Both the position numbers and the translations under genes were made by a program. Under the pieces are notes generated by a model. That model was given only the letters and a program-made list of their open reading frames with translations. It ran no database searches and was not told the origin of the DNA. Positions 23,052-24,608 of a DNA stretch of 64,000 bases are shown one piece after another. This DNA comes from Escherichia coli (GTDB taxonomy: Bacteria; Pseudomonadota; Gammaproteobacteria; Enterobacterales; Enterobacteriaceae), in NCBI RefSeq assembly GCF_044324875.1, contig NZ_CP172185.1. One strand, given 5' to 3'. The first letter of the stretch is position 1; every line of letters starts with the position of its first letter.

Positions 23052-24470
23052 TCAGACAACTTCCTCACCGTAACGCATAGTGCTGGTACGGTTGCGCCCA
23101 TCTTTCTTCGAGCGATACAGACACGTATCGGCTTCGACCATCAATTTATTAAAGTCATCGGTCAGCGTTCGGTACGATGCGCATCCACTACCGACGCCAA
23201 TACTTACCGTGAGATAAAGCGTTTTTTGTTGCCAGGTGAACGGTTGCAATTCAACGCCTTTACGGATTTTTTCCGCCATTAGCAAACCATCGACAGGATT
23301 CACCGACGGCACTGCAACAGCAAATTCTTCGCCGCCCATTCGCGCCACCAGCCCCTTATCACCGACAATCTTCTGAATATGCTGGGCAAACACGCTTAAC
23401 ACTTTATCGCCACATTCATGTCCATAGTTATCGTTAATGCTTTTGAAATAGTCGATATCAAGCAGCATGACAGTCAGATGTTGTGTCTGTTTCAGCGATG
23501 GACTTTTCAGCGCCTCATAAAGACCGGACCGTGAGTAAACCTGAGTCAGAAAATCAAAGTCGGCTCGCAGCGCAACTTGCTTCATTAGCGAATTGATCGC
23601 TGCCACGCTAAAAGAAACCATAATTGGGCATATCGCCATCGTGGCAATACCGAGACGTGCGGAGAACATTTGCGGAATGGAGAACGGCGAACCGACCGAG
23701 ATATCAATCACTGAATTTGCCACCAGTACGATTTCCACCGCACCGGTGACAAAGGTCAACAGACATGTTACCTGCGGCGTATAGCGCACTGCACACCAGA
23801 TTAATGCAGGCAGCGGGAACGCCAGACTCCCCGCTCCGCCAATGACTACCGAGGCAATAACCGACACAATAAGCGCGATAGCGGGCATCATCTGTTCTGC
23901 TTTAAAGCGCGGCAGCACTCCAGGAATTGCCAACGTCAGCATACAAGGCACGATCAACACGCCCGTTGAGAATTGCTCACTGAACCAGTCGGCAAGCAAA
24001 GGCCAGAAATCCAGACTATCAATACTGACCGAACCAATCGCCCCGACAATAGCGCATAATAATGCGGCAATCAGACAGTAATTAAATAGCCGTAAGGCAC
24101 TTACTGGCTCATACTTATTTTTCCCCAGACGCTTATCCCGCGCGACCAGTAAGGCGACGGTAACAATAAACATCATATTGGAGAAATTGATAGCCAGTGA
24201 AACCAGCCCCCATTCGGTGGTTATGGCATCATAAACCAGCATTGCCACATAACTGATCGCATAGTAATGCAGTCGATTAAGCCAGACATAGCGGGCAAAC
24301 ACCCCCGCCATTACGCCATTCAGCGGCCAGAAAAGAGAAAGTTCGTGAACCAGCCGTAACTCTGCACCAATAAAATAGAACAGCGTGGTTAGCGCAAAAA
24401 TAGCGATGCTATTACGTAGCAGATGACCTTCCTGGAACAAACGGAAAGTTGAAATGGGCTGTACATGCAT
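23052..24470 (-). CDS. dgcF: Membrane-anchored diguanylate cyclase (N-terminal multi-helix sensor domain + GGDEF)
   Basis: 472 aa; hydrophobic N-terminal half, then GGDEF domain with RMGGEEFAV. Exact start uncertain. Confidence 0.85.
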   Translation of the reverse strand: MHVQPISTFRLFQEGHLLRNSIAIFALTTLFYFIGAELRLVHELSLFWPLNGVMAGVFARYVWLNRLHYYAISYVAMLVYDAITTEWGLVSLAINFSNMMFIVTVALLVARDKRLGKNKYEPVSALRLFNYCLIAALLCAIVGAIGSVSIDSLDFWPLLADWFSEQFSTGVLIVPCMLTLAIPGVLPRFKAEQMMPAIALIVSVIASVVIGGAGSLAFPLPALIWCAVRYTPQVTCLLTFVTGAVEIVLVANSVIDISVGSPFSIPQMFSARLGIATMAICPIMVSFSVAAINSLMKQVALRADFDFLTQVYSRSGLYEALKSPSLKQTQHLTVMLLDIDYFKSINDNYGHECGDKVLSVFAQHIQKIVGDKGLVARMGGEEFAVAVPSVNPVDGLLMAEKIRKGVELQPFTWQQKTLYLTVSIGVGSGCASYRTLTDDFNKLMVEADTCLYRSKKDGRNRTSTMRYGEEVV

Positions 24471-24608
24471 TAATTATCTGTCCATACAATTGCGGGTGGC
24501 AATTATCTCAACGTAATAAGTAAATTCTTATAAAGGATAGCATGTTCGCTGACAGCGGCGGCAAATAAAGATATCCTGGGAATGCTATTTTATCGTTTTC
24601 CGCGATTA

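Follow-up and report, generated by a model that had tools for sequence, protein, structure and literature searches.

Escherichia coli dgcF: an intact 472-residue membrane diguanylate cyclase gene and the 498-bp deletion behind the 315-residue K-12 form

The stretch of Escherichia coli DNA analyzed here (the window: 64,000 nt of contig NZ_CP172185.1, assembly GCF_044324875.1) carries dgcF (yneF), a diguanylate cyclase gene, in an ATG-started open reading frame (ORF) of 472 aa on the minus strand. Over the dgcF region the window matches E. coli 042 (NC_017626.1) at 100% identity; there, dgcF has yneG and uxaB as neighbors, and RefSeq annotates exactly the same 1419-nt coding sequence (CDS) as a "sensor domain-containing diguanylate cyclase" (WP_000558440.1). 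The gene order glsB-yneG-dgcF-uxaB-yneE is the same in 042, J53 and MG1655, placing the window gene in the orthologous group by locus as well. The features of the gene and its 5' flank are as follows, with TM denoting a transmembrane helix.

23052..24470, minus strand: dgcF (yneF) CDS, 472 aa plus stop, from the ORF list; equals EC042_RS08745 / WP_000558440.1
24468..24470, minus strand: ATG start codon of dgcF, with a TAA two codons upstream and a weak Shine-Dalgarno-like GGA at -13..-11
24471..24608, minus strand: yneG-dgcF intergenic region, 138 bp, the presumed promoter region; its gene-proximal 65 bp are lost in K-12, and lacZ fusion data are given in PMC4287979
24038..24535, minus strand: 498-bp segment deleted in K-12-type genomes, from alignment, anchored comparison and direct reading
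23997..23999, minus strand: TTG (codon 158 here), counterpart of the start of the 315-aa MG1655 form, inside predicted TM6

The initial annotation of this DNA, made from the letters and their ORFs, had named the gene dgcF and proposed a full 472-aa ORF. The name is borne out by the gene order and by the ~98.7% identity of the shared part to K-12 dgcF, and the length by the ORF list, the upstream stop codon and the matching RefSeq CDS; the strand, which had not been given, is minus. The in-frame TAA two codons 5' of the ATG (upstream context ...GGACAGATAATTA-ATG) sets 472 aa as the upper limit for the dgcF product. The genes of KE40 and O157:H7 PA20 are likewise annotated at 1419 nt, and since this makes all three intact records inspected agree, the start codon of the intact gene is not in dispute; the annotation of 042, already 472 aa, needs no correction. 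In a nucleotide search of 5426 complete E. coli genomes, full-length identity was 97.7-100% across 4187 genomes. Full-length orthologs of 472-482 aa are also found in E. fergusonii, Citrobacter, Enterobacter and Lelliottia, and because the outgroup genera carry the full-length gene, the long form is ancestral and the short form a derived deletion. The window gene is thus very probably the intact, ancestral dgcF allele, encoding an inner-membrane diguanylate cyclase.

In MG1655, dgcF (b1522, NP_416039.1) is 948 nt long and encodes 315 aa. K-12-type records match the intact query in two pieces that cover 68% of it, and the 498 bp that they lack consist of 65 bp upstream of the gene, codons 1-144 including the ATG, and 1 nt. 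The deletion junction reads GCTATC joined to TTGGTTCGG, a unique breakpoint without microhomology. What remains of the K-12 gene is 986 bp, ~98.7% identical to 042, corresponding to residues 145-472 and including the entire GGDEF domain. The Prokaryotic Genome Annotation Pipeline (PGAP) labels the deleted alleles in J53 and ATCC 8739 as pseudogenes ("incomplete; missing N-terminus").

The initial annotation had put the shorter product down to the choice of start codon, with an annotation of about 315 aa omitting the membrane sensor domain. Such an annotation does exist (b1522), but its product keeps roughly TM6-TM10, so that only part of the membrane domain is missing. If the 472-aa and 315-aa forms were the same DNA differing only in start codon, one would point to the existing MG1655 CDS and to its TTG start, which is present in frame here as codon 158. 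This explanation is contradicted by the K-12-type DNA itself, from which the 498 bp with the ATG and 144 codons are physically absent; by two probes, one for the junction and one for the deleted segment, which divide 5412 genomes into 1216 and 4196; by the 472-aa annotation of all three inspected intact alleles; and by the published report of the deletion (PMC4287979). It retains next to no probability. The 315-aa K-12 "DgcF" is the remnant of a single 498-bp deletion and not a product of start-codon choice.

Both the intact gene and the K-12 deletion are already known, in the literature and in RefSeq. Richter et al. (2014) reported the K-12 dgcF deletion (PMC4287979), and Sarenko et al. (2017), in whose work it is also reported, detected no DgcF protein in K-12 and turned to the 55989 allele (PMC5635695). 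The deletion took away predicted TM1 to most of TM5 along with promoter-proximal DNA, the ribosome-binding region and the start codon, which explains the silence of dgcF in K-12. K-12 dgcF is therefore to be regarded as a promoter-less, 5'-deleted remnant and not as a mis-started gene, and the phenotypes of K-12 knock-outs need cautious reading. Work based on the MG1655 dgcF sequence studies a fragment without TM1-5. In a 2025 biosensor study, dgcF amplified from MG1655 was modeled or assayed as "DgcF", unknowingly in the form of this 5'-deleted fragment without TM1-5 (PMC11757272).

The distribution of the two alleles was surveyed in the 5426 complete E. coli genomes. A 44-nt junction probe, with 22 nt on either side of the K-12 junction and a megablast word that must cross it, matches 1216 genomes (1212 at at least 99% identity); 4196 genomes contain the 498-bp segment. 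Together the two classes total 5412, against 5414 in which dgcF was matched at all. Among those with the deletion are ATCC 8739, NCTC86 and many isolates of non-laboratory origin (pig, dog, duck, donkey, chicken meat and human). The deletion allele goes back to one event, the junction being identical throughout; it is widespread in nature (22% of complete genomes) and is not specific to K-12. Intact dgcF is present in roughly three out of four complete E. coli genomes and in the pathogens enteroaggregative E. coli (EAEC), enterohemorrhagic E. coli (EHEC), uropathogenic E. coli (UPEC) and Shigella.

Five of the hits for dgcF and its 498-bp 5' segment sit on records typed as plasmids, which may be misassigned pieces of chromosome. 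A second, different deletion was seen in strain LI60C3 (NZ_CP136900.1; locus L003, 3131-4521), where dgcF is cut after ~795 nt and fused to a truncated tam; the 3' end of dgcF, uxaB and yneE are removed, hipBA follows directly, and PGAP calls both remnants pseudogenes. Two predicted proteins of 514 aa (P0003) and 460 aa (P0008) contain a complete DgcF N-terminal domain (98-99% identity over 100% of a 300-aa query) with HipA_C in place of GGDEF; in some E. coli assemblies, a deletion has apparently fused dgcF to hipA.

Conservation of the 5' end of the coding sequence indicates that the ATG at 24470 is very probably the true start of dgcF. When 12 sequences drawn from Escherichia, Citrobacter, Enterobacter and Lelliottia were aligned, the M1 column proved invariant in 12 of 12; it is the first residue of 11 of them, and the remaining one extends a further 24 aa upstream. 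Conservation sets in at F9, with F9, F12, L18, R19 and N20 invariant and TM1 highly conserved, and for distant family members (25-40% identity) the alignment starts at about residue 17-20. Upstream of residue ~17, the only start candidates are ATG1 and TTG11. An internal start, at TTG11, ATG54 or later, would yield a protein shorter than 472 aa; it would account for the weak Shine-Dalgarno match of ATG1 (GGA, -13..-11), which weighs against the start proposed here, and for residues 2-8 being poorly conserved and poorly modeled (predicted local distance difference test, pLDDT, below 50 for residues 1-8). Several points weigh against it. M1 occupies the same column in all 12 sequences, the five residues F9, F12, L18, R19 and N20 are invariant, and TM1 (17-37), modeled at a pLDDT of at least 90, is conserved throughout the family, G35 and R39 included. 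TTG11 has no Shine-Dalgarno sequence at all and lies past the conserved F9, while a start at M54 would lose TM1 and the conserved W48-P49-x-N51 motif and leave an odd number of helices. An internal start is thus very improbable. The weak Shine-Dalgarno sequence of ATG1 is consistent with the very weak expression of dgcF; expression of yneF has been described as weak and largely RpoS-dependent (PMC4287979).

The sole consensus-like sigma-70 site in the yneG-dgcF intergenic region lies too close to the ATG, ending 3 nt before it, to be a credible promoter, and a scan of the region upstream of dgcF found no terminator-like site. A four-codon mini-ORF (ATG GAC AGA TAA, 24478-24489, minus strand) overlaps the Shine-Dalgarno-like GGA in the frame of dgcF, its stop being the upstream TAA; it is probably meaningless.

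The 472-aa protein is made up of a hydrophobic N-terminal domain followed by a GGDEF domain, as the initial annotation had proposed. Its parts map to the window as follows.

23583..24470, minus strand: N-terminal membrane domain, residues 1-296, with 10 predicted TM helices, N-in/C-in, divergent MASE1-like
23559..23678, minus strand: continuous predicted helix, residues 265-304 (TM10 and the linker into GGDEF), the presumed signal-transmission element
23088..23564, minus strand: GGDEF catalytic domain, residues 303-461, from Pfam and TIGR00254
23352..23363, minus strand: position of a would-be RxxD inhibitory site (I-site), residues 370-373, which read GDKG; no I-site
23322..23336, minus strand: GGEEF active site (A-site), residues 379-383, intact and invariant in orthologs

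Assignment of the C-terminal domain is straightforward. Pfam GGDEF (PF00990) matches over its full profile (1-161) with E = 4.5e-41 and 140.7 bits against a cut-off of 23.8, and TIGR00254 matches with E = 4.5e-38 and 130.6 bits against a cut-off of 37.4. The RMGGEEFAV motif singled out in the initial annotation occupies residues 377-385, within the Pfam match. DgcF does not belong to the feedback-inhibited subclass of GGDEF proteins (PleD/WspR type), as GDKG stands where RxxD is expected; PMC4287979 and Table 1 of PMC3484386 likewise list YneF without an I-site. A scan of DgcF against NCBIfam gave matches at the level of GGDEF only, with no equivalog at cut-off and hence no DgcF-specific model. 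Catalysis has been documented experimentally: Shigella DgcF raises cyclic di-GMP (c-di-GMP) as measured by liquid chromatography-tandem mass spectrometry, an effect abolished in a GG->AA mutant (PMC11327459), and the overexpressed K-12 fragment is active while its E224A mutant is inactive (PMC11757272). Residue E224 of that study is E381 of full-length DgcF. In UPEC strain CFT073, deletion of yneF causes defects in glycerol biofilm and in bladder-cell adherence that are rescued by the heterologous diguanylate cyclase WspR (PMC3484386). The effects reported for DgcF in UPEC and Shigella comprise biofilm formation, adherence, acid resistance and invasion.

The N-terminal domain is more hydrophobic than the catalytic part, with a mean Kyte-Doolittle hydropathy of +1.00 for residues 1-295 and -0.23 for residues 296-472. 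AlphaFold2, given an 81-sequence family alignment, predicts ten helices between residues 17 and 296 (17-37, 49-60, 67-84, 89-114, 122-147, 155-179, 191-210, 213-229, 232-251 and 265-296); the model has a mean pLDDT of 91.5 and a predicted template-modeling score (pTM) of 0.84 for the full-length protein, and 91.5 and 0.90, respectively, for the N-domain alone. With the N-terminus inside, the loops hold 8 K+R inside and 1 outside, in keeping with a GGDEF domain in the cytoplasm. Comparison between genera gives 72-89% conservation for the N-domain and 65-79% for the GGDEF domain. An internal duplication of the ten-TM domain was considered and rejected: with the profile halved in four ways, no hhalign probability exceeded 0.5%. 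The label "sensor" for this domain is one that we infer.

By profile comparison, the N-domain of DgcF is a divergent MASE1-class membrane input domain. MASE1 has been described as an N-terminal integral membrane input domain, ~300 aa long, that crosses the membrane with 8-10 TM helices, and also as a ten-TM domain (PMC6510439). The architecture of the DgcF N-domain agrees with this description in length, in its ten AlphaFold2 helices, in hydropathy and in the 8 versus 1 charge count. A phmmer search of the full library with the N-domain returned 408 representatives at E <= 1e-3, most of 460-490 aa. The majority of these homologs join the N-domain to GGDEF, while P0187, P0257 and P0267 are hybrid histidine kinases, and this re-use with GGDEF or histidine-kinase outputs matches the modularity of MASE1. 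Among 81 family members, 51 match Pfam MASE1 at E <= 0.01, the best at E = 3.2e-11; when 10 distant members were scanned singly, the seven MASE1 matches among them all fell under the cut-off, at 16-27 bits. The family profile recognizes residues 1-330 of DgcE with 37.8 bits in HMMER and with 91.8% probability and E = 7.4e-7 in hhalign (columns 12-240 against 12-233), compared with at most 3.4% for nine unrelated polytopic membrane proteins used as controls. Two results weigh against the assignment. The DgcF N-domain itself gives no match to Pfam MASE1 (PF05231, gathering score 29.8 bits) even at E <= 10; the lone Pfam match of the N-domain in that scan, to SAYSvFN, has E = 0.2 and was rejected as spurious. 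In addition, the N-terminus of UhpB (MG1655 uhpB, L006 13635-15137), which we take to be another MASE1 domain, does not match the DgcF N-domain profile (hhalign 0.2%). MASE1 as now defined may be heterogeneous.

How such a domain could act on the cyclase can be outlined as follows. DgcF would dimerize, like other GGDEF enzymes, to join two GTPs; the conformation of the membrane domain or its contacts with a partner, relayed through the TM10-linker helix, might then set the alignment of the GGDEF pair. Since the I-site is absent, output would not be limited by product inhibition. Two points weigh against this scheme. We know of no signal or partner for DgcF. Moreover, the overexpressed protein is active without added stimulus, both as the 315-aa K-12 form (PMC11757272) and in Shigella, where activity was "constitutively high" (PMC11327459), and control of DgcF by its N-domain is for this reason a proposal.

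These same points lend themselves to another interpretation, namely that the N-domain is a mere membrane anchor or localization module that receives no signal, with output set by expression level alone. Overexpression of Shigella DgcF does give constitutively high c-di-GMP (PMC11327459), the K-12 fragment is catalytically active when overexpressed even without TM1-5 (PMC11757272), and the role of MASE1 in DgcE, where the domain is needed for activity, is in part membrane localization (PMC6510439). However, ten helices go far beyond the needs of anchoring, and conservation is higher in the N-domain than in the catalytic domain that it would anchor. Across 81 members with ~27-43% identity, N98, W162, P282, W48-P49, N51, D81, R60 and G211-G212-x-G214 are invariant or nearly so within helices; histidine-kinase outputs are also found joined to this domain; and the MASE1 domain of DgcE is the direct target of the GTPase RdcA (PMC6510439). 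A pure anchor is accordingly judged unlikely, and a regulatory membrane domain remains the reading that we favor.

A structural idea bears on what such a domain might recognize. A putative six-helix core with the S-component fold known from energy-coupling factor (ECF) transporters may bind a small molecule within the bilayer, making DgcF a "transceptor" similar to the 5TMR-LYT pyruvate sensors. The fold is already known in bacterial receptors: a 2024 paper ties it to 5TMR-LYT receptors and MreD, with MASE1 unmentioned (PMC11109136), and a literature search found no paper linking MASE1 to the S-component fold. The idea is based on a predicted structure, and comparisons speak against it. A Foldseek search against the PDB was without a match (best E = 0.7), hhalign gave at most 0.2% for BtsS and PyrS with their 5TMR-LYT domains, no ECF or 5TMR Pfam matches occur among the 81 family members, and no internal repeat is detectable in the ten-TM domain. 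Some of the families in this lead presumably share a Pfam clan. We regard the S-component-like core as doubtful, and as a testable idea for the signal of the MASE1-like domain of DgcF. If it holds, DgcF would sense a small molecule bound within the membrane, and the link between transporters and receptors would extend from 5TMR-LYT kinases and MreD to the MASE1 inputs of c-di-GMP enzymes.

The intact allele and its products can be set beside known systems. ECF S-components and 5TMR-LYT domains have six or seven helices, whereas DgcF has ten and resembles them neither in profile nor in the Foldseek search. The N-domain of DgcF and the MASE1 domain of DgcE are alike in their ~300 aa, ten TM helices, Gly/Pro-rich intramembrane segments and combination with GGDEF or histidine-kinase outputs. 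Unlike DgcE, DgcF has its GGDEF domain directly after the membrane domain with no PAS domains between them, and we know of no RdcA-like partner for it. The K-12 protein (b1522) differs from that of 042 in being a fragment that is not expressed (PMC5635695) yet is catalytically competent when overexpressed (PMC11757272), and the deletion that produced it, taken as K-12-specific in 2017 (PMC5635695), has the same junction in 1216 of the 5426 genomes surveyed here. Published full-length YneF, with its hydrophobic N-domain of ~300 aa, intact A-site and absent I-site (PMC4287979), matches the 042 allele. Full-length DgcF/YneF of EAEC 55989, O104:H4, EHEC O157:H7, UPEC CFT073 and Shigella flexneri (S1698) is the same gene at the same locus, 472 aa long and with no substantive difference from the 042 allele, which is one more intact carrier.
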